In this document: one piece after another, positions 1-9,933 of the stretch
Layout of the letters: each line of letters starts with the position of its first letter
Position numbering within the stretch: position 1 is the stretch's first letter
The notes under the pieces: generated by a model
What the model was told of the DNA's origin: nothing
Databases searched by the model: none
Seen by the model: only the letters and a program-made list of their open reading frames with translations
Translations under genes and position numbers: made by a program
Virus record (IMG/VR): IMGVR_UViG_2634166457_000012
Location: 1-9,933 of that record
Strand: one strand, 5' to 3'
DNA: 9,933 nt
Source: a virus
Taxonomy: Duplodnaviria > Heunggongvirae > Uroviricota > Caudoviricetes

Positions 1-385
1 AAATTTGATCCAGTAAGCACGGTTTTGGCCTTTTCGCCATTCTGTTGGCTCGGTTATTAGCATCAACAGCTTTGTAATAGCGTCTGCCCCGATTACGCTG
101 AACTTCACGTGAGATCGTCGAAGGACTGCGATTCAGCGCAGTAGCTATCGCACGAATGCTCATTTTGGCTGACAAACCAGCTCGTATCTCCTCGCGCTCA
201 GACAGTGTCAGGTGAGCTACAGCCCGCTTACGCTCATGGGGTTTTATGCCGCCAGTATCCCTTAACATAGTGAAGATCGTTCCGGGTTTTGAACCCAGGA
301 TATTCGCTATTTCACTGAAGCCTGTTCCGTTCTTCCATAGTTCAAAAACAGAGGCTTTTTCCTCTGCTGTAAATGTTCGTCTCAT
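1..385 (-). CDS. insI: IS30 transposase, N-terminal ~128 codons (C-terminus outside window)
   Basis: Minus-strand ATG at 385..383 preceded by GGAGG. Translation begins MRRTFTAEEKASVFELWKNGTGFSEIANILGSKPGTIFTMLRDTGG..., the helix-turn-helix N-terminus of IS30 transposase. Not in the ORF track because the frame runs off the window edge. Confidence 0.85.
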   Translation of the reverse strand, partial: MRRTFTAEEKASVFELWKNGTGFSEIANILGSKPGTIFTMLRDTGGIKPHERKRAVAHLTLSEREEIRAGLSAKMSIRAIATALNRSPSTISREVQRNRGRRYYKAVDANNRANRMAKRPKPCLLDQI

Positions 386-447
386 TCAAAAAACCTCCGC
401 AACCCCATGTTTTCACATAACTGTTGCGTTGACCAATTGAATCTACA
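1..447 (-). mobile_element. IS30 insertion sequence, partial (terminal inverted repeat plus 5' part of transposase gene; remainder lies beyond the window start)
   Basis: Reverse complement of 447..421 reads TGTAGATTCAATTGGTCAACGCAACAG, which I recognise as the IS30 terminal inverted repeat. It is followed by a GGAGG RBS and the transposase ATG. The element ends exactly where the gpD-like reading frame is broken (447/448). Confidence 0.88.
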
Positions 448-714
448 AGTGCCTTTTTCTGTCAGCGGTTCTCCTTTCCAGCCAATGAGAACCGTCAGGC
501 GCGCGCCCCGTGGCGGTAGCTGCAACTGACCATCCGCATCATCCAGCGTGATGGTGAGCTGGTCCGCCTCAAATCCTCGGTTGTCGGTCAGTGACAGGCT
601 CATCAGGCGCTCTGCCACGCCTGACAGCGTTTTACCCTCCGCAAGAATATCAAAATCCGGCATTTTCACGGGGTCTGTGCCCTGACTGAGCAATTGCATG
701 GTTGTGTCGGTCAT
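448..714 (-). pseudogene. D: P2 gpD-like tail/baseplate hub protein (late control gene D family), 5' fragment of ~89 codons truncated by IS30
   Basis: Minus-strand ATG at 714..712 with AGGGAGG RBS 6 nt upstream. Translation MTDTTMQLLSQGTDPVKMPDFDILAEGKTLSGVAERLMSLSLTDNRGFEADQLTITLDDADGQLQLPPRGARLTVLIGWKG carries the LTDNRGFEADQL-I-LDD motif typical of the phage gpD N-terminus. The frame reads into the IS30 end and stops at a TGA overlapping the transposase ATG. The track ORF 382..846 is this frame, over-extended upstream and read through into IS30. Confidence 0.6.
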
Positions 715-871
715 CTGTTCCCTCCCTGTGCGGCATGGTCGCATGTGCGTGCGGAGGGGGTTACTGCTTTTTGTTGTCGCCGTGGCGGGAGAATAGCGCA
801 GGGGTGAGATTACGCGCGTGGTGGGTGATGATTGTTGCTGAATCATTTAACGGATACAAGGGGCTGAAGCT
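715..871. promoter_or_regulatory. Divergent intergenic region between gpD-like (minus) and sheath FI (plus); presumed to carry promoters for both
   Basis: 157-bp non-coding gap between two divergently oriented starts, each with a good RBS. No confident -35/-10 pair and no P2 Ogr-type TGT-N12-ACA dyad found by eye. Confidence 0.3.
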
Positions 872-2056
872 ATGAGTGAAACTCGTTTTCATGGTGCCCG
901 TGTTACGGAAAATACCGACCTGGTAACAGCGATTAACGATGTTGATTCCAGCGTTATCGGTATCGTGGCAACGGCGGATGATGCGGACGCGAAGCTGTTC
1001 CCGCTGAACAAGCCCACACTGCTGACCCGCGTCAATGACGTGCTGGGAAAATGCGGGACAACGGGGACGCTTTATCGTGCGCTTAAGGCCATCGCAGACC
1101 AGGTGAGCACAAAGGTGATCGTCGTTCGCGTGGCTGAACACAAAGAAGAAGACGGAAAGACGCAGGATCAACTGGTTATCGGTGGTTCTGAGGATGATGG
1201 CAGCTATACGGGGATGTATGCGCTGCTTGTTGCAGAGCAGGATGAAAGCATCGGATACCGTCCGCGTATTCTGGCCGCGCCGGAGCTGGACACGGAGGCG
1301 GTGACAAAATCCCTGTGCGTGATTGCGGGTAAACTGCGCGCGTTTGTGTATGCCACATGTCATGGTTGTAACACGATGGCTGAGGCAATTACCTACCGCC
1401 AGAAATTCAACGAACGTGAGGTGATGCTCTTATGGCCGGACTTCATCGCCTACAACCCGAAAAGTGGCAAAAACGAAACGTTCCCCGCGCCTGCCTATGC
1501 GTGCGGCCTTCGTGCGTACATTGACCATGAGCAGGGCTGGCACAAATCACTGTCCAACGTTCCGGTTAAAAATGTGCTGGGGATGTCGAGGCATGTGTTC
1601 TGGTCGTTGCAGGCCGAAGACAGCGATGCCAACAGCCTCAATAATAAAGAAATCACGACCATTATTCGTCGCAACGGGTTCCGCTTCTGGGGCAACCGCA
1701 CACCGGAAACGAACGCCTACATCTTTGAGGTGTATACCCGAACCGCACAGGTGCTGGCTGATTCAATTGCGGAAGCGCAGTTTGAAACCATCGACAGTCC
1801 ACTGACGCCTGCGAATGTGAAGGATGTTATCAGTGCCATCAGGGCAAAACTGGATTCGCTGGTTACTGCCGGGAAACTGATTGGTGCGGAGTGCTGGTAT
1901 GACGTGGTGGATAACGGTACCACGAATTTACGTCAGGGACGTGTGCGTATTCGCTACAAATATACGCCTGTTCCCCCGCTGGAAGACATGGAGCTTTACC
2001 AGACGTTTACTGATGAATTCTTTGGTCCCGCATTTGCGGTGCTGGGAGGTGCCTGA
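872..2056 (+). CDS. FI: Contractile tail sheath protein (P2 gpFI family), 394 aa
   Basis: ATG 872 with AGGGG RBS ~8 nt upstream. Length and sequence character match myovirus sheath proteins of the P2 FI type (P2 FI is ~396 aa). Followed immediately by tube, chaperone, tape measure and gpU in the canonical order. Confidence 0.88.
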   Translation: MSETRFHGARVTENTDLVTAINDVDSSVIGIVATADDADAKLFPLNKPTLLTRVNDVLGKCGTTGTLYRALKAIADQVSTKVIVVRVAEHKEEDGKTQDQLVIGGSEDDGSYTGMYALLVAEQDESIGYRPRILAAPELDTEAVTKSLCVIAGKLRAFVYATCHGCNTMAEAITYRQKFNEREVMLLWPDFIAYNPKSGKNETFPAPAYACGLRAYIDHEQGWHKSLSNVPVKNVLGMSRHVFWSLQAEDSDANSLNNKEITTIIRRNGFRFWGNRTPETNAYIFEVYTRTAQVLADSIAEAQFETIDSPLTPANVKDVISAIRAKLDSLVTAGKLIGAECWYDVVDNGTTNLRQGRVRIRYKYTPVPPLEDMELYQTFTDEFFGPAFAVLGGA

Positions 2057-2568
2057 TGGCTGTACCAAAACATCTTCGCTTTTTTACGTTGTTTGTGGAT
2101 GGTGAAAACGAAGTGGGTAAAGTGACATCCGTCACGCCGCCCAAACTGACGCGCAAAACCGACAGCTATCGTGGTGGTGGCATGATGGGGGCGGTAAGTA
2201 TTGATCTCGGTCTGGACGACTCCGCGCTTGATGCGAGTTTTGTCATGGGGGGAGCTGTTCGTGCGCTGTTCCTTAAATATGGTGGCACGATTGACGGCAC
2301 GCTGCTGCGTTTTGCGGGTGAATACTACACCGATGCAGAAAGCGATCTGTATGAAATCGAGATGCGTGGGCGTGTGACGGAAATTGATATGGGGGAAGCC
2401 AAACAGGGCGAAGCCACATCACACACTTACGCTGTCAAAAACACCTACTACAAGCTGAGCGTTAACGATCGCCCGCTGTGGGAAATCGACCTGTTGAACC
2501 ACATCTACCGGAAGGACGGCAAGGACATTGTGCCTGACCGTATCCGTTCCGCGCTTGGGCTTGGCTGA
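2056..2568 (+). CDS. FII: Tail tube protein (P2 gpFII family), 170 aa
   Basis: ATG 2056 overlaps the FI stop (TGATG) and is preceded by GGGAGGTG. Size matches P2 FII (~172 aa) and it sits directly after the sheath gene. Confidence 0.88.
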   Translation: MAVPKHLRFFTLFVDGENEVGKVTSVTPPKLTRKTDSYRGGGMMGAVSIDLGLDDSALDASFVMGGAVRALFLKYGGTIDGTLLRFAGEYYTDAESDLYEIEMRGRVTEIDMGEAKQGEATSHTYAVKNTYYKLSVNDRPLWEIDLLNHIYRKDGKDIVPDRIRSALGLG

Positions 2569-2623
2569 TAAGTAATATGCAGGCGGCGCAGTGCGTCGCC
2601 TCTGACTGAAAAGGAGACAACTG

Positions 2624-2998
2624 ATGAAAGACATCGATACTGAAACCCGGAATAACACCGTGGCGGATGATGTGACGGCAGGTGAGGATATGGCTGTCGA
2701 ACGTGGCGTAAAACTGACCCGACCAATTGAGCGTGGTGGCGAAAAAATCACGTATGTGGAGATCACCGGGGCTATTGAGCAGGCTGGATCCCTGCGTGGT
2801 CTGTCGCTGTCTGATGTGCTGAATCTGAAAGCGGATACCATGTTCACGCTGTTGCCTCGCGTGACCTCGCCACGACTGGATGAAGTGATGATTAAAAAAA
2901 TGTCGTCACGCGATTTTATTCAGTTGTGCGCTGTGGCTGTAAATTTTATGAGCGAGCCAGACTCTGGCGCGAAGAGCGTGCAGGAGACGGCAGCGTAA
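2624..2998 (+). CDS. E: Tail assembly chaperone (P2 gpE-like), 124 aa, zero-frame product
   Basis: ATG 2624 with AAGGAG RBS at 2611..2616. Small acidic protein between tube and tape measure. Its 3' part is overlapped by a -1 frame ORF that runs to 3162, the hallmark of the E/E' (lambda G/GT-like) chaperone pair. Confidence 0.78.
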   Translation: MKDIDTETRNNTVADDVTAGEDMAVERGVKLTRPIERGGEKITYVEITGAIEQAGSLRGLSLSDVLNLKADTMFTLLPRVTSPRLDEVMIKKMSSRDFIQLCAVAVNFMSEPDSGAKSVQETAA

Positions 2999-3162
2999 TC
3001 ACCCTGGTGTGCTTTGAGCACATCGAAGATCTGGTGGCGGATATTGCCGCCATTTTTAACTGGTCGCCCGCCGAAATCTTCATGATGACGCCCGGCGAAG
3101 TGGTTAGCTGGCGTGAGCGGGCGGCACTTCGCAGCGGGAATGCAGACAATGAAGACTCTTGA
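2624..3162 (+). CDS. Tail assembly chaperone frameshift product E+E' (programmed -1 frameshift, predicted ~179 aa)
   Basis: The -1 frame is open from 2896 (after TAA at 2893..2895) to TGA at 3160..3162 and overlaps the last ~100 nt of E. A heptamer fitting X_XXY_YYZ in the E frame lies at 2941..2947. The E' stop overlaps the start of T. Confidence 0.55.
2941..2947 (+). other. Candidate -1 slippery heptamer A_AAT_TTT for the E/E' frameshift
   Basis: E-frame codons AAT(2942..2944) and TTT(2945..2947) preceded by A2941. A small hairpin GCCAG-ACT-CTGGC (2956..2968) lies 8 nt downstream. An alternative site is the A7 run at 2894..2900 (T_AAA_AAA), which is non-canonical. Confidence 0.4.
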
Positions 3163-5956
3163 CATCCGGGTCGCTTTCAGCGCCGTTGACAGGCTGACCC
3201 GGCCTGCCGAAAACGCCCGCCGCCTGATGGGGCAGTTTGGTGACTCCATCCAGCGAACGCAGGGGGCGATCAAAAATCTCGAGCGTCAGGCGCGTTCATT
3301 TGAGCGCGCCCGTGACGCTGTCAGTAAAGCGGATGCTGGCGTATTGAAAGCACGACGCCAGCTTAACGCCCTTAATCAGTTACAACGCACGGGTACAGTG
3401 CTCAGCGAAAAACAACAAAAGCTGATGCAGCAGTTAAGCACCCGGCTTGAACGCCTGAATGAATCGCGCACACGGGAAATTCAGAAAATGCGGGAACTTG
3501 GCGGAGAGCTGAAACGCCACGGCATTTCCCTGACAGGCAGCGATAACACCATCCAGCAGGCCATCAGACGCACCGAACAGTACAACAACCAGCTTGAACG
3601 CGAACGGCAGGCGCTTGCGCGTGTAACGCGGGCGCGTGAGCGGTATTCGCGCGCGCAGGAAACAGAGGGAAAACTGAAAACAGGTGGTGCACTGGCAATT
3701 GGTGCGGCAGCGGCGGGCGGCTATGCTGCCGGGCGTTTTTTGCAGCCTGCGATCGGGTTCGGCAAAGAGATGTCCTGCGTTCAGGCACTGACGCGAATCG
3801 ACAAAAACAGCCCGCAGTTTAAGGCGCTGCGTGAGCAGGCGTTAAAACTTGGCTCTGAAACACAGTTTACTGCGAGTGATGCCGCCAGTGGGCAGAGCTT
3901 TCTGGCAATGGCTGGTTTTACTCCTCAGGCCATTCAGGCCGCATTGCCCGGTGTTCTTAATATGGCGCTGGCAGGTGGCGTCGAACTCGGCGAGACGGCT
4001 GATATAGGCTCCAATATCCTCACACAGTTCAACCTGACAGCCGATCAAATGGACCGGGTTGGCGATACGCTGACAGCAGCATTCACCCGGACCAATACTG
4101 ATTTACGCGCGCTGGGCGAAACCATGAAGTATACCGGTCCGGTTGCCGCAAAACTTGGTATCAGTCTTGAAGAAGCGGCGGCCATGGCCGGGATGCTTGC
4201 CAATAATGGTCTTCGCGGAAGCGATGCGGGTACGGCCATGCGCGCAAGTCTGTCCCGCCTTGCATCACCGCCAAAAGCTGCGGCTGATGCACTGAAAGAG
4301 CTGGGGGTGTCAGTTGCTGACGCCAGAGGCAAAATGCGCCCAATGGAGGATGTGCTGCTTGATCTCTATAAGGCGACACAAAAATACGGACAGGTGGACC
4401 AGGTCTCCTTCTTCAAGGACATCGCCGGAGAAGAGGCGTTCGTTGGTTTGCAGACGCTTGTTGCGGCGGCTGGTTCAGGAGAACTGCAAAAACTGACCAG
4501 AGAATTGCAGGGGGCAAGGGGAGAGGCCGATCGCGTTGCAAAAGTAATGGCCGATAATCTTGATGGGGACCTGAAAAATCTCGACAGCGCATGGGAAGGT
4601 CTTCGTATTCGCATCAGTGATCTGGTTGACGGTCCGCTGCGTTCTGTCACGCAGTGGCTCACGCGGGTGCTTGAAAAAATCACCTCGCTGGCGCAGGCCC
4701 ATCCGGTACTGACGCGCCAGCTACTGATAGCAGGCGGTGCGTTGCTGGCAATGACTGCAACGATTGGCTCGTTGTCGCTGGTTATTGGGGTGCTTTACGG
4801 GAAGCTGGCCACCCTGCGTCTTGGTTTTGACATTCTTACCCGGTCAATGAATGTCGTCAGGGTGTTGCCTGCGCTGTGGGGAATGGTGACGGGTTCCGTT
4901 TCTTTACTGGGGGGCGCTATCGGGGCGTTGTTCAGTCCGGTTGGTCTTATTGTGGCTGCGCTCGCCGGAGCTGCCGTTCTCATCTGGAAATACTGGGATC
5001 CCATCAGGGCATTTTTTGCCGGGGTGTTCAGCGGGATTATGGAAAGGCTGACCCCGTTGCGCGAAACCTTTGAACGGTTTGGTCCTGTTTTTGACGCAAT
5101 CGGAAGCGGGATCAGCCAGGTGTTTAACTGGTTTAAATCGCTGCTGTCACCGATGGAGTCCAGCAAGGAAACGCTGGATAAATGTACCAGTGCTGGCGAG
5201 ATATTCGGTAACGTTCTTGGCGGTGCGTTACAGCTTGTTCTGACACCTGCAAAAATGTTGCTGGATACGCTGGCGTGGATACTTGAAAAGCTCGGTGTGC
5301 TTCCGGATGAAGCGGAAAGGGCGCGCAAGAAAATCGAAGACGCACAGCGTGCGGCCATTCTTCAGGATAAGGTTGCCTTGCTTCAGGGGGACCTGGCGAA
5401 AATCAATCCGCCGAAGCCTGTGGAAAATGGCAATGGTACCGGAGGTGATAAGCCCAAAGACAACAAACCGCTCACAGACAGCAATACCGGTACGCTACGC
5501 AGACTCAGCAAAATTGCTGATAACACAGGTAAGCTGGTTGATGAGACGAAAAAACGCATTGGCCCCGGCGATATTGTCTTTAAGAACCTGCCCCGCGCAC
5601 TTGCTGTTCGTGGGGAGTGGCAGGAGCGGAAGATTGCGCAGGTCAGTAAGCCTGCCCCCGCAATTAATATCACACCCGTGGTTCCGGCTCCGCTGTCTCC
5701 AGCGCTGGTCCCTGTTGTTGCGGCCAGCTCCCGCCCGGTGGCGGAGGCCATACGATCGCCAGTGGCATCAGTTCCTGCAACTTCCCGTAACCGGGAGCCT
5801 GTTGCCTCCGGATTTGGCGGTGAAATTCATGTTCATCTGCATAACGTTGTTACGCAGAATCCCCGCGAACTGGCGAAACTGGTCGGTGAAATGGTCAGGG
5901 CAGAATTGGAACGACGCGACCGTGCCGGACGTGGCAGTTTTTACGATAAAGATTGA
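3149..5956 (+). CDS. T: Tail tape measure protein (P2 gpT-like), ~935 aa
   Basis: Long ORF directly after E/E'. N-terminal third is coiled-coil-like and rich in R/E/Q/L. The middle has Gly/Ala-rich hydrophobic segments (e.g. LLIAGGALLAMTATIGSLSLVIGVLYG and GAIGALFSPVGLIVAALAGAAVLIW) typical of tape measure proteins. Start chosen at ATG 3149 (GGGA ~9 nt upstream); in-frame alternatives are ATG 3140 and GTG 3113 (the track start). Confidence 0.85.
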   Translation: MKTLDIRVAFSAVDRLTRPAENARRLMGQFGDSIQRTQGAIKNLERQARSFERARDAVSKADAGVLKARRQLNALNQLQRTGTVLSEKQQKLMQQLSTRLERLNESRTREIQKMRELGGELKRHGISLTGSDNTIQQAIRRTEQYNNQLERERQALARVTRARERYSRAQETEGKLKTGGALAIGAAAAGGYAAGRFLQPAIGFGKEMSCVQALTRIDKNSPQFKALREQALKLGSETQFTASDAASGQSFLAMAGFTPQAIQAALPGVLNMALAGGVELGETADIGSNILTQFNLTADQMDRVGDTLTAAFTRTNTDLRALGETMKYTGPVAAKLGISLEEAAAMAGMLANNGLRGSDAGTAMRASLSRLASPPKAAADALKELGVSVADARGKMRPMEDVLLDLYKATQKYGQVDQVSFFKDIAGEEAFVGLQTLVAAAGSGELQKLTRELQGARGEADRVAKVMADNLDGDLKNLDSAWEGLRIRISDLVDGPLRSVTQWLTRVLEKITSLAQAHPVLTRQLLIAGGALLAMTATIGSLSLVIGVLYGKLATLRLGFDILTRSMNVVRVLPALWGMVTGSVSLLGGAIGALFSPVGLIVAALAGAAVLIWKYWDPIRAFFAGVFSGIMERLTPLRETFERFGPVFDAIGSGISQVFNWFKSLLSPMESSKETLDKCTSAGEIFGNVLGGALQLVLTPAKMLLDTLAWILEKLGVLPDEAERARKKIEDAQRAAILQDKVALLQGDLAKINPPKPVENGNGTGGDKPKDNKPLTDSNTGTLRRLSKIADNTGKLVDETKKRIGPGDIVFKNLPRALAVRGEWQERKIAQVSKPAPAINITPVVPAPLSPALVPVVAASSRPVAEAIRSPVASVPATSRNREPVASGFGGEIHVHLHNVVTQNPRELAKLVGEMVRAELERRDRAGRGSFYDKD

Positions 5957-5962
5957 GGAGTC

Positions 5963-6457
5963 ATGGCCATGATGATGATCTACGGCATGTTTGTTTTTGA
6001 GTTGCGCACGTTGCCGCATCAGCAGTTACAGCAAAACAAAAGCTGGCGACATGTGAAAAATGAACGCGTTAACCGTTCGGCAAGCTGGCAGTATATCGGT
6101 GCAGGTGATGATCGCATCGTTCTTTCGGGTGTTCTTTATCCTGAGATTACAGGTGGCGAAGTGTCGCTGTCGTTGTTGACCACGCAGGCATATACAGGAC
6201 GCCCCTGGCCTCTGATTGATGGCGTCGGGCAGATTTACGGCATGTATGTACTGACTGAAACGAATACGACCCGCTCCGAGTTTGATCGCTACGGTAAGGC
6301 GAAAAAGATAGAATTTTCACTGACTCTTGAACGCTGTGATGAGGATTTGCGGGAGCGCCTGCAATCCTCATCGTTCAGCGATATGTTGTCCGGCTTCAAA
6401 GATAAGGTGACATCATCCCTTAACAGCGCGGCCAGCTCAGTTAAGGGGCTGCTCTGA
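5963..6457 (+). CDS. U: Tail protein gpU-like (P2 U family), ~162-164 aa
   Basis: Follows the tape measure by 6 nt. Size matches P2 gpU (~159 aa). GAGGAG at 5955..5960 is best spaced for the in-frame ATGs at 5969/5972, so the true start may be 6-9 nt downstream of the track start 5963. Confidence 0.8.
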   Translation: MAMMMIYGMFVFELRTLPHQQLQQNKSWRHVKNERVNRSASWQYIGAGDDRIVLSGVLYPEITGGEVSLSLLTTQAYTGRPWPLIDGVGQIYGMYVLTETNTTRSEFDRYGKAKKIEFSLTLERCDEDLRERLQSSSFSDMLSGFKDKVTSSLNSAASSVKGLL

Positions 6458-6467
6458 TTTAACGTAT

Positions 6468-6500
6468 GTCGCCAATTTCCTGATGAAGGTGACTGGCGAC
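6468..6500 (+). other. Inverted repeat GTCGCCA-N19-TGGCGAC just downstream of the gpU stop; possible weak terminator or processing hairpin
   Basis: Perfect 7-bp arms at 6468..6474 and 6494..6500, followed by TTGCTGTTGT. The long loop and poor U-tract make an intrinsic-terminator call weak. Confidence 0.25.
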
Positions 6501-6533
6501 TTGCTGTTGTATGTCCTTCTCAGAAAATTGTTT

Positions 6534-6562
6534 TTGAATAACAAATAACAGGATTTTATAAT
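6534..6562 (+). promoter_or_regulatory. Near-consensus sigma70 promoter for the acetyltransferase moron
   Basis: TTGAAT (6534..6539), 17-nt spacer, TATAAT (6557..6562). Predicted transcript start ~6569, about 45 nt upstream of the GTG start, in an AT-rich non-coding stretch. Confidence 0.55.
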
Positions 6563-6613
6563 CTCTTAACCTTATAACATGTGTGGTCTGAAATAATAAT
6601 TAAGGAGATTTTC

Positions 6614-7186
6614 GTGCTGTCTTACTTAATGGCAATTCACTTTGTTTTATTTGGGAACTCTACTAATTTAAAAAACTTCTGGAAACATGAAGTGATTCGG
6701 CGGAAACGTATGGATATCTGGAGGCTTTTAAGAGAGAAAAAGCAGCGTAACCGGAATTTCCTGTTCTGGTGGCGGTTGGCTAACGAAATGTATATTAATG
6801 GTAATAAATCACATAAGAAAGCAGCCAAAAAGTTAAACAGTAAAATAATTAACAAATTTGGTTGTGAAATAGGATTGGGAGCAAATATTGGAAAAGGGTT
6901 AACAATTCCCCATCATGCTGGAATTGTTGTTCATTTTGCTGTTGATGCGGGTGAAAATCTGGTATTACGACAGAATACTACCATTGGACAGATAGATGGT
7001 GACATGCCTGGTTCAAGAGTGAAAATTGGTAGTAACGTTGATATCGGAGCTAATTGTTGCATCATTGGATTATCACGTAAAATTGGGGATAATGTAAAAA
7101 TAGGTGCAATGTCTTTTATAAATAAAGATATACCATCAAACTGCACATATATAACTAAAAAGAGTGGTGTTGTATTGTATAAATAG
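6614..7186 (+). CDS. Hexapeptide-repeat (left-handed beta-helix) acetyltransferase, serine O-acetyltransferase (CysE/WcaB/NeuO-like) family; ~190 aa; AT-rich moron
   Basis: Translation contains the SAT-family signature GCEIGLGANIGKGLTIPHHAGIVVHFAVDAGENLVLRQNTTIG followed by further hexapeptide repeats (VKIGSNVDIGANCCIIG, KIGDNVKIGAMSFINKDIP). Start assigned to GTG 6614 because AAGGAG (6602..6607) lies 6 nt upstream; the track ATG 6581 has no RBS. Followed by a strong terminator. Confidence 0.72.
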   Translation: MLSYLMAIHFVLFGNSTNLKNFWKHEVIRRKRMDIWRLLREKKQRNRNFLFWWRLANEMYINGNKSHKKAAKKLNSKIINKFGCEIGLGANIGKGLTIPHHAGIVVHFAVDAGENLVLRQNTTIGQIDGDMPGSRVKIGSNVDIGANCCIIGLSRKIGDNVKIGAMSFINKDIPSNCTYITKKSGVVLYK

Positions 7187-7193
7187 AGTACAT

Positions 7194-7230
7194 AAAGCCA
7201 TCGATATTTCTGTCGATGGCTTTTTCTTTT
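7194..7230. terminator. Rho-independent terminator, shared by the convergent acetyltransferase (plus) and tfa (minus) transcripts
   Basis: Perfect stem AGCCATCGA (7196..7204) / TCGATGGCT (7213..7221) with 8-nt loop, then TTTTTCTTTT (7221..7230) on the plus strand. On the minus strand the same stem follows the tfa stop but has only a short U-tract (UUUAUG). Confidence 0.8.
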
Positions 7231-7808
7231 TATTGTGGGGCGACTGGCCACTCAACATCCGCTGCTACTGTTGTATCAACACGATTCAACAATACCCTAT
7301 ATGTCTTCCATGCAGCCAGTAACGATGCCTCTTCCTCCGTCGCAATATCCAAATCTACGGCATCCTGAAGTGGCGCAATATGCTCACTGGCTACCTGCAT
7401 CAGGCTGTTTTTTGTTTCTTCTGCCTCCCGTACCCGAAACAGTTTTTCTGCTTCTGCATCTTTCACCCAGGATGTGCCGTTCCACTTCTGACACTCTCCA
7501 TCCGGCGACAACCAGGTAACATTTTCCGGTAACGGACCGAGTTCAGAAATAAATAACGCGTCCCCTGATGCCACGTCATAAACCGTTTTACCCCGATGGT
7601 CTTCAACGAGATGCCACGATGCCTCATCACTGTTGAAAACAGCCACGAAGCCTGCCGGAATATCTGGTGGTGCAATATCGGTACTGTTTGCAGGCAGACC
7701 TGTATGAGGTGGAATGTATGCATCACCTTCCCCAATAAATTCATTAGTTCCGGCCAGCAGGTTATAAATTTTTATGGTCCGTGATTGTTCACTCATTCTG
7801 AAATCCAT
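7230..7808 (-). CDS. tfa: Tail fibre assembly protein (lambda Tfa / P2 gpG family), ~192 aa
   Basis: Translation ([97 protein letters not shown]...) is near-identical to phage lambda Tfa as I recall it. ATG 7808 with GAGGTG 5 nt upstream; the track start GTG 7814 is less likely. Confidence 0.9.
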
Positions 7809-7816
7809 GTTCACCT

Positions 7817-8719
7817 CTACTTAATATCAGAGACAGAATATTGTTTATTGAGCGTATGGGTGGGAGTACCAATAACGATGCTACTTCCGTGGCTATGTGC
7901 GCCAGAGGTGACATTACCTACGGGATTTTCTGGATTAATCCGGTGTATATGCGAACCAGGGCGAAAACGGTTATTAGCCTGATGTTGTATCAGTACATCA
8001 TCAGCCTGATGTTCAGGGTTAATACAGACTTGCCCGGAACGAGAGCAACACGTCCGATAATCGCCACATCCAATATATTTAGTATCCGCATAACGGCAAA
8101 CGGAATTACCCGGACAGTATGCATATGTGCCAAATACTGCCGACTGGCGAGATTGTGCGTATTCCCAGTTAATTGATTCTGTTTTTTTATTAAAGTTATC
8201 CCATGCCTGCTTCATCTGTCGGGCAACACTTTCAAACGGCACCTGACCACATCCGGCCCCCATTGCAGGGAATACCACTGTTTTTATTTTCATGTCTGTC
8301 GTTGCGTTTTTATTGTGTTGAAAGATGGCAAGCAGAGCGGCCCAGGTTGCGTTATATACAGCGTCTGTTCCGTCAATTGTCAACGGAACACGCATTGTTG
8401 GCGCATGTACCAGCCAGGGGTGATGATTATGCCCCGTTTCAATGACAAATGCAGAACCTACAGGCTGTTCGCCGAGATATTCACGAAGAATATGATTCTG
8501 AACGCGGGACTGTAACTGAGTACCGAAGAATGCGGTAATGGCGGCATCAACGCCACCATCCATCAAGCCGAAACTATTTGCCGCACTTACCATGCAGTCA
8601 AATTCTCTGATTGTTTCAAATGGCTTTCCGACAATATTCACACTATCTGCATTTGCAAATACCTGCTTAAATGCTTCAGCCATTTCTGTTACTGGTGCAG
8701 AAAGAATGAGCGTAATCAT
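7817..8719 (-). CDS. Macro-domain protein (predicted ADP-ribose-binding / ADP-ribosyl hydrolase) with Cys/His-rich C-terminal extension, 300 aa
   Basis: N-terminal ~180 aa carry macro-domain motifs in the correct order: [26 protein letters not shown] (compare VNAAN..L.GGGGVDGAIHRAAG), [25 protein letters not shown], and [22 protein letters not shown] (compare FPAISTGVYGYP). ATG 8719..8717 overlaps the stf stop (ATGA) with GAGG 5 nt upstream. Stop TAG 7819..7817 lies 8 nt before the tfa ATG. Coding call is strong; the functional call is from motif recognition only. Confidence 0.7.
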
Positions 8720-9933
8720 GCAAGCCTCACAATATAGTTAAATGCGATGTTTTTTACGGTGTTTTCTGCGTTACCCGTAGCGTTAACGGTGATGGTATGC
8801 CCGTGTGAACCTATCGCAACGGAGTGTGTGTGTGCGCCAATATTTACTGTGTGAGAGTGCCCCCCTGCGTTACTTGTTTTTCCAGTGCCAAGCCCTGAGT
8901 TATAACCAGCCGAAACACCATTACCAGCGCCAGTGTTGCCAACAGGAATATTGTGTGAATGATCCCCGGCGCTATTCGTGGTTTTAGTGCCATGGTTAAA
9001 TGAACTGGACGTCTTGGTGCCGTAGTCAAATGATGATGTGGTTTTTGTCCCCAAGTCCGTACTGGACGCGCTGGCACTGTGGGAGTGTGATTTAATGCCG
9101 TCCTGTTCCTGAGATAATACGGCCCGACCACTGGCGGGTTTGCCCTTAATCGTCCAGCCACGCATATCAGGGATCACACCAGACGGATAAGCGACTGCAA
9201 GCAGGGGGTAGACTGTTTTATCAAAAGTCTGCCCCTGCATAACGGTGTAGCCTGTAGGCACTGAATCAGAAGGCCACGGTATCGCCGCACCTACCGGAAA
9301 TGAATCTTGTGGCGTCCATGGTGTCCAGTCACCCGTTGAGTACTGGCTGCGGGTATAGCTTCTGGATGTGTCATACACATAGTAAATCTGTGTTATCCCG
9401 GCATTTTTAAGCACAACCAGTGTACCCGCAAAATTCTCCGGGTATTTCAGCGCTGCGCTTGTATTGGCATTCAATGGCTGATGGTACAGCCCCGGTGTTT
9501 TGTAATTATCCAGATTCTGATTTGCACCAATCTCAATACTCTGGCCGTTAAAAATATCCTGCGATGTAACATTGACATCATTGGCTAGTGATTTGCCATT
9601 AACCTTACGTCCAGAGGGCACACGCCCGTTTGCATTGTCATTAGCGGCTTTCACCGCTTTCGGAGTCGCGGCAAGCGTTTCAGAATCACTGTTAGTGACG
9701 CTACTGAGCTGGACTATTCCTTTTCGTGCCGTCGTGGCGTCCTGTGCGGTATATTTCCCGTTAGCAAGGTCATAGGCTGCCTTTACCGCCTTTGGTGTTG
9801 CCGCCAGCGTTTCTGAATCGCTGTTGGTGGCGCTACTGAGCTGGACTATTCCTTTTCGTGCCGTCGTGGCGTCCTGAGCGGTATATTTCCCGTTAGCAAG
9901 GTCATATGTTGCCTTTACCGCCTTTGGTGTTGC
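8716..9933 (-). CDS. stf: Side tail fibre protein (lambda Stf-like), C-terminal ~405 codons; N-terminus lies beyond the window end
   Basis: Frame is open to the window edge with no start codon. Contains 44-aa tandem repeats [34 protein letters not shown](A/V)TNSDSETLA characteristic of enterobacterial phage tail fibres. The His-rich C-terminus [28 protein letters not shown]...[11 protein letters not shown] matches the lambda Stf tip. The track ORF 8716..9654 is the same frame cut at an internal GTG. Confidence 0.9.
9655..9933 (-). repeat. Tandem direct repeats, period 132 bp (44 codons), at least 2 copies in window, within the stf coding region
   Basis: GCTACTGAGCTGGACTATTCC occurs at 9700 and again at 9832; GCCTTTACCGCCTTTGGTGTTGC at 9779 and 9911. 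Copies are near-identical over ~90 bp, and the copy nearest the C-terminal part is diverged at one end. Confidence 0.85.

Follow-up and report, generated by a model that had tools for sequence, protein, structure and literature searches.

In the tail-fibre cassettes of lambda (stf-tfa), P2 (H-G), Mu (S-U) and T4 (gp37-gp38), the chaperone gene directly follows the fibre gene. The stretch analysed here (the window) comprises the 9,933 nucleotides (nt) at positions 1 to 9,933 of IMG/VR virus record IMGVR_UViG_2634166457_000012, a virus of the Caudoviricetes. Its side tail fibre gene (stf) and tail fibre assembly chaperone gene (tfa) are ordinary members of these families, whereas a third, enzyme-type open reading frame (ORF), dispensable for the pair in most phages, lies between them. 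This ORF (7817..8719, 300 amino acids (aa)) encodes a macro-domain protein; an initial annotation had given its position and length correctly and left its strand, which is minus, unstated. The reading that we tentatively favour, at a probability of roughly 45%, is that the protein acts as an enzyme inside the infected cell on a 1''-substituted ADP-ribose (ADPR) derived from nicotinamide adenine dinucleotide (NAD), either in counter-defence or in detoxification.

Macro domains are numerous in phages, and to our knowledge AdfM is the only one with a demonstrated role. The protein most similar to the window protein is yeast Ymx7 (YMR087W; PDB 1NJR/1TXZ/1TY8), an ADP-ribose-1''-monophosphatase that is likewise a Macro2-type macrodomain. 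The two share only 21% identity, the phage protein adds a 105-residue Cys/HxH tail, and Ymx7 is a cellular enzyme, whereas the phage protein is encoded in a tail-fibre operon and its activity is predicted. AdfM (PhiKZ gp104 and PhiPA3 gp108; PMC13309987), also a phage-encoded macro-domain protein, is a DarG2-like macrodomain that serves counter-defence by removing DarT2-attached ADP-ribose from DNA. It differs in being DarG/ALC1-like with catalytic residues N23 and K78, in being imported into the phage nucleus and in lying outside fibre operons, whereas the present protein is Macro2-like, has no conserved lysine and has a separate homologue, gp271, in PhiPA3.

Two further systems invite comparison. 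A shared mode of action, the neutralisation of 1''-linked ADP-ribose signals, is proposed with phage proteins that bind up or break down TIR/Thoeris signals derived from ADPR, namely the Tad1/Tad2 sponges and the RyR-domain proteins (PMC13232231; preprint 10.64898/2026.06.04.730250); these have unrelated folds, the known inhibitors lie in early or anti-defence hotspots and not in a fibre operon, and action of the macro protein on Thoeris signals is only proposed. If the macro protein is a third fibre component encoded after the fibre gene, its analogue would be the T2-type gp38 adhesin, which attaches to the gp37 fibre tip as a protein of its own; the two have no sequence or fold similarity, and gp38 is required for host recognition whereas the macro gene is optional. 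The suggestion that the arrangement had not been described holds for the literature, a search of which returned no paper on the stf-macro-tfa insertion, its fibre-like tail or its function. It does not hold for the gene itself, which is annotated in the Gifsy-1 record; the family is named in RefSeq ('macro domain-containing protein'), as PHROG 2613 and in old phage records, and phage macro domains in general are already known.

Insertion at the stf/tfa junction

The plus strand of the window carries the sheath, tube, E, tape measure and U genes, and the minus strand carries the 3' part of stf, the macro ORF and tfa. The features of the minus-strand cassette are the following.

8716..9933, minus strand: 3' part of stf (P2 gpH / lambda Stf type), with shaft repeats, a tail-collar domain, three GxHxH repeats and a conserved C-terminal end
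8716..8719, minus strand: ATGA overlap of the stf stop and the macro start, read from the sequence
8135..8719, minus strand: macro domain, Macro2 / Ymx7-like, residues 1-195, with the N-x6-GGVD loop (N48, D58), H105 and the G154-x-G156-x-G158 diphosphate loop
7994..8134, minus strand: four-cysteine module, residues 196-242 (AYCPx4C...YIGxGDYRTxCx2SGx2CI), with C202, C208, C225 and C232 invariant or nearly so
7820..7993, minus strand: variable GxHxH-repeat tail, residues 243-300, similar by hhalign to the HxH repeats at the stf tip
7809..7819, minus strand: macro stop and 8-nt spacer with a new tfa Shine-Dalgarno sequence (GAGGTGA), read from the sequence
7230..7808, minus strand: tfa, tail fibre assembly chaperone of the lambda Tfa / P2 gpG type (Pfam Caudo_TAP, E 3.7e-40; phrog_105)

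At the stf-macro junction (...GTGAGGCTTGCATGATTACG), the macro gene starts at the ATG 8719-8717, which shares bases with the TGA that ends stf (8718-8716), and the GAGG located 5 nt upstream is the Shine-Dalgarno sequence that serves tfa in macro-less loci. At the macro-tfa junction (...AAGTAGAGGTGAACATGGATTTC), the stop TAG (7819-7817) is separated from the tfa ATG (7808-7806) by the 8-nt spacer AGGTGAAC, which forms most of a GAGGTGA Shine-Dalgarno-like run. The tfa ORF as called by the program begins at GTG 7814; lambda-type Tfa proteins start at the ATG. The start overlap, the 8-nt gap and the ribosome-binding site at each junction are thus read from the sequence as the initial annotation had described them. 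The macro gene has thereby captured the Shine-Dalgarno sequence and the stop/start overlap by which tfa is normally coupled to stf, and it supplies tfa with a new Shine-Dalgarno sequence.

A comparison with macro-less loci reveals how precise the insertion is. In the Qin prophage of K-12, stf reads ...GCATAATGGCATTC into tfaQ, and tfa directly follows the corresponding end of stf in Qin as in loci by the thousand (...GTGAGGCTTGCATAATGGCATTCAGAATGAGTG). Relative to Qin, the window has 906 extra nt, and the sequence flanking them is 85-90% identical on either side; tfa itself has 90% nucleotide identity to tfaQ. The insertion is also optional, in that tfa/stf-tip sequences are present in 4592 of 5426 complete E. 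coli genomes and the macro gene in only 128. In the Pfam and PHROGs searches the macro ORF has no Caudo_TAP or tfa match, unlike the downstream gene.

The stf of the window matches Pfam Collar and Phage_fiber as well as the tail fibre families phrog_295 and phrog_8239. Its frame stays open up to the right-hand window edge, with the 5' part beyond, which indicates that stf is cut by the window and not by a stop codon; the complete gene, annotated in the locus L001, has 1959 nt. The shaft contains tandem repeats of ~132 nt (44 aa each) at 9625-9933, and the window and L001 differ by 27 nt in length, in frame, at some point of the aligned block.

Promoter-like sites number 8 against 7.1 expected and terminator-like sites 4 against 3.2 expected, and none of them frames the macro ORF. 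As neither kind of signal exceeds chance for the macro gene itself, it should be transcribed and translated with the fibre, and the expression with late genes that had been proposed is the natural reading. The macro gene does not qualify as a moron, an autonomous accessory unit of late regions with its own promoter and terminator; the neighbouring acetyltransferase gene, by contrast, has both elements.

Macro domain class and conserved residues

The protein matches the Pfam Macro family (PF01661) with an E-value of 9.6e-19 and 67.9 bits (gathering cut-off 22), residues 44-169 aligning with the whole profile (positions 1-118 of 118), and it matches phrog_2613 with 487 bits. All three macro motifs named in the initial annotation are found in the order given (S45-A-A-N48-x6-G55-G-V-D58-A-A-I; G96-HNHHPWLVH105-AP; and a third from F150 to 161), although the first had been written with an offset of one ('SAAN-x6-DGGVD'). 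The real spacing is N-x6-GGVD, and N48-SFGLMD-G55-G-V-D58 conforms to the MacroD-type N-x6-GG[VLI]D motif. Judged by the Pfam and PHROG scores, the motif set is not a product of chance.

A first, full-length AlphaFold model built from 58 close homologues was poor, with a mean predicted local distance difference test (pLDDT) of 58.5, low confidence for the four-cysteine module and values below 50 in the tail. The second model, of residues 1-200 on a 115-sequence alignment that included more distant standalone homologues, has a pLDDT of 91 and a predicted template modelling score (pTM) of 0.90, and the predicted structure has the three-layer alpha/beta/alpha arrangement of a macro fold. Structure comparison of the modelled core gave scores of 19.0 for Ymx7 (1NJR), 14.4 for Af1521, 14.2 for DarG, 12.8 for MacroD2, 12.2 for Poa1p and 8.4 for E. 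coli Thoeris ThsA. Ymx7 is the nearest relative by this measure, its N- and C-terminal extensions included, and Foldseek and the sequence profile agree. The Pfam score, the confident model of residues 1-200 and the structure comparison together bear out the macro-domain identity that had been claimed.

The profile alignment places the proposed catalytic residues of Ymx7, N80, D90 and H145, opposite N48, D58 and H105 of the macro protein. In the broad alignment A4, F21, G55, H105 and G154/G158 are invariant, and conservation is 90% or higher at N48, D58, D41, G56 and V57. The conservation of the ligand loops spans cellular homologues of 46-53% identity from Chloroflexi and other environmental bacteria; related representatives also include eukaryotic fusion proteins. 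Since the loops are kept relative to the cellular homologues, the ligand should match theirs in kind, an ADP-ribose derivative found inside cells, and the loops formed by D41, N48, G55-G-V-D58 and G154-x-G-x-G158 suggest that such a derivative is bound. According to a review of macrodomain clades, the sole studied member of the Macro2-type clade, YMR087W, turns ADP-ribose-1''-phosphate into ADP-ribose but does not remove mono-ADP-ribose from modified targets (de-MARylation; PMC6397177).

Other classes of macro domain fit the protein less well. The MacroD loop G-[VIA]-[YF]-G, whose aromatic residue positions the distal ribose, is replaced by G-C-G-Q. No lysine equivalent to the catalytic K80 of TaqDarG or K84 of TARG1 is invariant or near-invariant in alignment A4; K137 and K144 are conserved in the narrow homologue set only, and the model places both, in helix 120-138 and in the loop before strand 147-151, respectively, away from the ligand loops. 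The PADLOC match to DarG is insignificant (13.8 bits, E 0.007, 39 residues), and a partner DarT is not among the neighbours, which are stf and tfa only. The close fold match with a fused transmembrane effector that characterises the Thoeris type II ThsA class was not found either. The protein is a macro domain, and its assignment to DarG or MacroD is not justified.

These features bear directly on the idea that the protein is a de-ADP-ribosylase for DNA, RNA or protein modified by host ADP-ribosyltransferase defences such as DarT and CmdT, which could for example clean phage DNA before packaging. The macro fold with its N-x6-GGVD loop is compatible with this activity, and there is a precedent in AdfM, which counters DarT2; DarT2 can block packaging late in infection (PMC13309987). 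However, the nearest class is Macro2/Ymx7 and not DarG, the lysine equivalent to DarG K80 is not conserved, the DarG match is as weak as stated above, and Macro2-type enzymes are reported to lack de-MARylation (PMC6397177). Moreover, PhiPA3 encodes the homologue gp271 beside its AdfM gp108, which suggests different jobs for the two. The DarT-like de-ADP-ribosylation put forward in the initial annotation is weakened by the same properties of the clade, the lysine and the aromatic motif, and we regard this activity as distinctly unlikely.

Distribution, selection and the C-terminal extension

The order stf-macro-tfa recurs in P2-like prophages and the isolated phage Chuche, in lambdoid prophages (as J-lom-stf-macro-tfa), in an N15-like linear plasmid prophage, in a P1-like phage-plasmid, in Gifsy-1 (whose 2008 record notes 'contains pfam01661, Macro'), in the Salmonella phages SEN4 and SEN5, in an Erwinia prophage and in a Mu-like Enterobacter prophage. 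Chuche, SEN4/5 and Gifsy-1 are viable carriers. The IMG/VR set comprises 80 contigs, 77 of them assessable for synteny, with 78 copies that have an intact 5' end. The stf end abuts the macro start and tfa follows directly in 75 of the 77 assessable contigs, and the NTGA start/stop overlap is present in all 78 copies. The insertion between a lambda-type stf and tfa, with translational coupling to both, is thereby upheld, and the junction is conserved across prophages.

Of these 78 copies, 74 are intact and have the tail, another two are 203-aa versions that lack it, and the remaining two have decayed. The occurrence of tail-less versions in the same slot indicates that the macro domain itself is the selected cargo. 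Inactivated copies were seen with an IS3 insertion (NZ_CP031321.1, hit H180), a frameshift (L051) and a truncation (L096). The tail-less gene was observed at L098 and L099 3001-3612, where it has a TAATG overlap onto tfa, and another variant (L097 2068-2970) has a different cysteine-rich linker (CGC...CDCGCG) and retains the HxH repeats.

Near-identical macro alleles, with synonymous divergence (dS) of 0-0.03, are common to lambda-, N15- and P2-like elements. The shared block consists of tfa, the macro gene and approximately the last 600 nt of stf, except for a divergent segment of ~145 nt at window 8869-9013, which indicates that the macro gene travels with the host-range cassette. Because the site lies between sequences conserved in most coliphage fibre cassettes, the gene can spread by homologous recombination among unrelated phage families.

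The ratio of nonsynonymous to synonymous divergence (dN/dS) is as follows.

Macro domain: 0.07-0.16
Cysteine module: 0.05-0.15
HxH tail: 0.3-0.9

Between genera dS is saturated, and the reading frame, the start overlap and the ligand loops are kept from Escherichia to Erwinia. The macro gene is intact and under purifying selection, not decayed. A neutral hitch-hiker or decaying fragment, lodged between two recombination-prone conserved sequences, might be expected from the occasional decayed copies and from the absence of the gene from most stf-tfa cassettes. This explanation is largely refuted by the low ratio of the macro domain at saturated dS, by the 74 of 78 intact copies and by the retention of frame, overlap and loops between genera, and is hardly credible; the frameshifted or absent fragment that had been named as a sign of decay is likewise not what the copies present.

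Standalone Macro2-like homologues were also observed in jumbo phages (Noxifer, PhiPA3 gp271, PA1C, FBKp24, phiRSL1) and in giant viruses, and several of these are labelled 'tail protein', apparently by annotation transfer.

The initial annotation had overlooked the C-terminal extension, in which the four-cysteine module, presumed to be a zinc-ribbon-like linker, precedes a fibre-like tail with one to four HxH motifs per homologue. Alignment of the tail profile with the three GxHxH repeats of stf tips by hhalign gives a probability of 91.5% and an E-value of 8.7e-7 over only 31 columns of a short repeat, while Pfam Phage_fiber matches the tail only at E-values of 1.4 or above and BLASTP gives 0.03. 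From these comparisons, the tail is likely homologous to the fibre-tip repeats. A recent duplication of the stf HxH region was rejected as its source, the BLASTP similarity being only motif-level. No significant match to the tail or to the four-cysteine module was obtained in a PDB profile search or a Pfam scan, the C-terminal 107 aa alone as a query returned only three fragments, and a scan of the genome contigs for the cysteine module turned up no more than 3 loci. The tail is confined to the prophage lineage; among the ~2300 representative relatives, most are standalone proteins of 200 aa, or fusions, that lack it. The needle of T4 gp37 is a trimer in which HxH motifs bind iron ions along its length, and the simplest inference is that the tail trimerises here too, perhaps with Tfa as its chaperone. 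A fragment of the cysteine module on its own, with no macro domain (59% identity to residues 184-244), was observed in Salmonella phage SEN34 (L008 4001-4183); it is located downstream of a fibre/chaperone pair, adjoins an acyltransferase-3 gene and is probably a remnant.

The main alternative to an intracellular enzyme is that the tail reflects a real place in the fibre or virion, in which a GxHxH-tail trimer, formed with the aid of Tfa, would sit on the side tail fibre or on tip-bound Tfa, and the macro domain would be an extracellular receptor-binding or receptor-modifying (esterase/phosphatase) head, or would be carried to the next host. Consistent with such a role are the hhalign similarity to the stf repeats, the tail histidines kept across genera despite saturated dS, and the constant, translationally coupled placement between fibre and chaperone. 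Some database entries read 'phage tail protein', in phrog_14717 ('tail protein') this macro domain is combined with stf-like repeats, and phage Macro genes in morphogenesis clusters are generally predicted to be packaged (PMC9503650). These names have no experimental basis, however, and homologous stf and tfa function without the macro gene in most phages, including those with lambda-type cassettes. Fibres are not injected, and we know of no ADPR-like ligand on enterobacterial surfaces. The tail-less 203-aa versions at the same position, the (near-)invariant ADPR-loop residues shared with cytoplasmic cellular homologues, the fast evolution of the tail and the failure of the PDB profile search and the Pfam scan of the tail to detect a baseplate- or fibre-docking domain also count against a place in the virion, which we consider unlikely.

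Proposed function and surroundings in the window prophage

Action inside the infected cell on a small molecule is favoured because the ligand loops match those of cellular homologues, because of the substrate of Ymx7, because the gene is dispensable for fibre assembly and because tail-less versions occur in place. In this reading, the ORF is a functional, promoterless accessory gene inserted precisely where the stop of stf and the start of tfa meet in a lambda-type pair, so that the macro protein would be made only with the tail fibre, in roughly equal amount and late in lytic growth. The Macro2-type domain would bind a 1''-substituted ADP-ribose derivative and hydrolyse it to ADP-ribose. Candidate substrates are the TIR/Thoeris-type signals His-ADPR and gcADPR, which late structural proteins including side tail fibres can trigger, and the ADP-ribose-1''-phosphate formed by NAD+ phosphorylase toxins of the RES/MbcT type; ADP-ribosylated macromolecules are less likely. 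The four-cysteine module and the GxHxH repeats would trimerise the protein like a fibre tip, probably with help from the downstream Tfa.

Published work is compatible with parts of this scheme. Phage Macro proteins are predicted to target mostly soluble ADPr derivatives, and some are encoded among morphogenesis genes (PMC9503650); side tail fibres and their chaperones set sensitivity to type II Thoeris (preprint 10.64898/2026.06.04.730250); and MbcT makes ADPR-1''-phosphate (PMC6436930).

Several points weigh against the intracellular enzyme. For every family member, the enzymatic and counter-defence role is deduced from sequence and model. Late expression is poor timing against early-acting defences, an intracellular enzyme alone leaves the fibre-like HxH tail of most copies unexplained, and hydrolysis of ADPR-1''-phosphate would not restore NAD+. 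Furthermore, standalone homologues lie in ordinary chromosomal neighbourhoods, which indicates that the ancestral role may be housekeeping.

Another reading is a benefit to the lysogen or a non-immune metabolic clean-up, in which the protein would, for example, remove ADPR-1''-phosphate derived from RNA 2'-phosphotransferase or from prophage RES toxins, or would act in superinfection exclusion after read-through transcription in the lysogen. The Ymx7-type chemistry and the non-phage contexts of cellular homologues fit such a role, as does a RES family NAD+ phosphorylase gene in the same prophage of L001, given that RES/MbcT enzymes make ADPR-1''-phosphate (PMC6436930). The macro gene, however, has no promoter of its own and is part of a late operon not expressed in lysogens, and a RES gene was not seen near most macro-bearing cassettes (lambda-, N15- and P1-like contexts). 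This role appears very improbable. The RES gene of L001 (4912-5739) lies beside hok/ogr, and ADP-ribose-1''-phosphate, which toxins of the RES/MbcT kind produce, is the only known substrate of the Macro2-type enzyme closest to the macro protein.

A different use of the tail can be combined with enzymatic activity, namely that a trimer folded by Tfa mimics the fibre tip, stays with the stf-Tfa intermediates sensed by TIR-type sensors (e.g. type II Thoeris ThsB) and hydrolyses His-ADPR or gcADPR at the source. We judge this combination quite improbable. If true, this would be the first case of an anti-Thoeris factor that is a macro-domain enzyme, and the first of a counter-defence gene coupled physically and translationally to the phage protein that triggers the defence.

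Returning to the intracellular enzyme, the macro family provides a compact, strongly selected Macro2-type candidate enzyme in tractable phages (Gifsy-1, SEN4/5 and Chuche; P2-, P1- and lambda-like prophages of E. coli and Salmonella), and natural plus/minus alleles in homologous fibre cassettes make a late, fibre-coupled countering of NAD-based immunity testable. The stf/tfa junction acts as a mobile insertion site by which cargo passes from one phage family to another, and stf-tfa module swaps in host-range engineering may bring the macro gene along unnoticed. Should the function prove ordinary, such as metabolic clean-up, the locus would still be a well-defined case of cassette hitch-hiking.

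With respect to the remainder of the window, positions 1-446 are the end of an IS30 copy with 99.8% identity to the IS30 found in 3548 genomes. This copy interrupts P2 gene D (tail hub/VgrG-like; 445-714) after ~90 codons, and the window prophage therefore probably cannot build tails; in L001 and Chuche, D is intact (369 aa). A frameshift in gene D was rejected in favour of the IS30 insertion. The sheath-tube-E-T-U block (872-6457, plus strand) is inverted relative to H-macro-G (7230-9933, minus strand) and D-ogr, unlike canonical P2. A rearrangement was rejected as the origin of the convergent FI-U / H-G order, which is a lineage trait shared by the viable Chuche and other prophages.

At the position of P2 Z/fun, the window carries a hexapeptide (serine-acetyltransferase-like) gene (6581-7186, plus strand) with a promoter-like site at 6534-6562 and a 13-bp hairpin terminator at 7194-7223; Chuche has a glycosyltransferase gene there. 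A functional pairing of the macro gene with the neighbouring acetyltransferase gene, as deacetylase and acetyltransferase, was rejected, as 530 E. coli genomes have the acetyltransferase gene and 128 the macro gene, whereas no more than 25 have the two side by side. In a Mu-like Enterobacter prophage and a P1-like plasmid, a similar hexapeptide gene comes after tfa.

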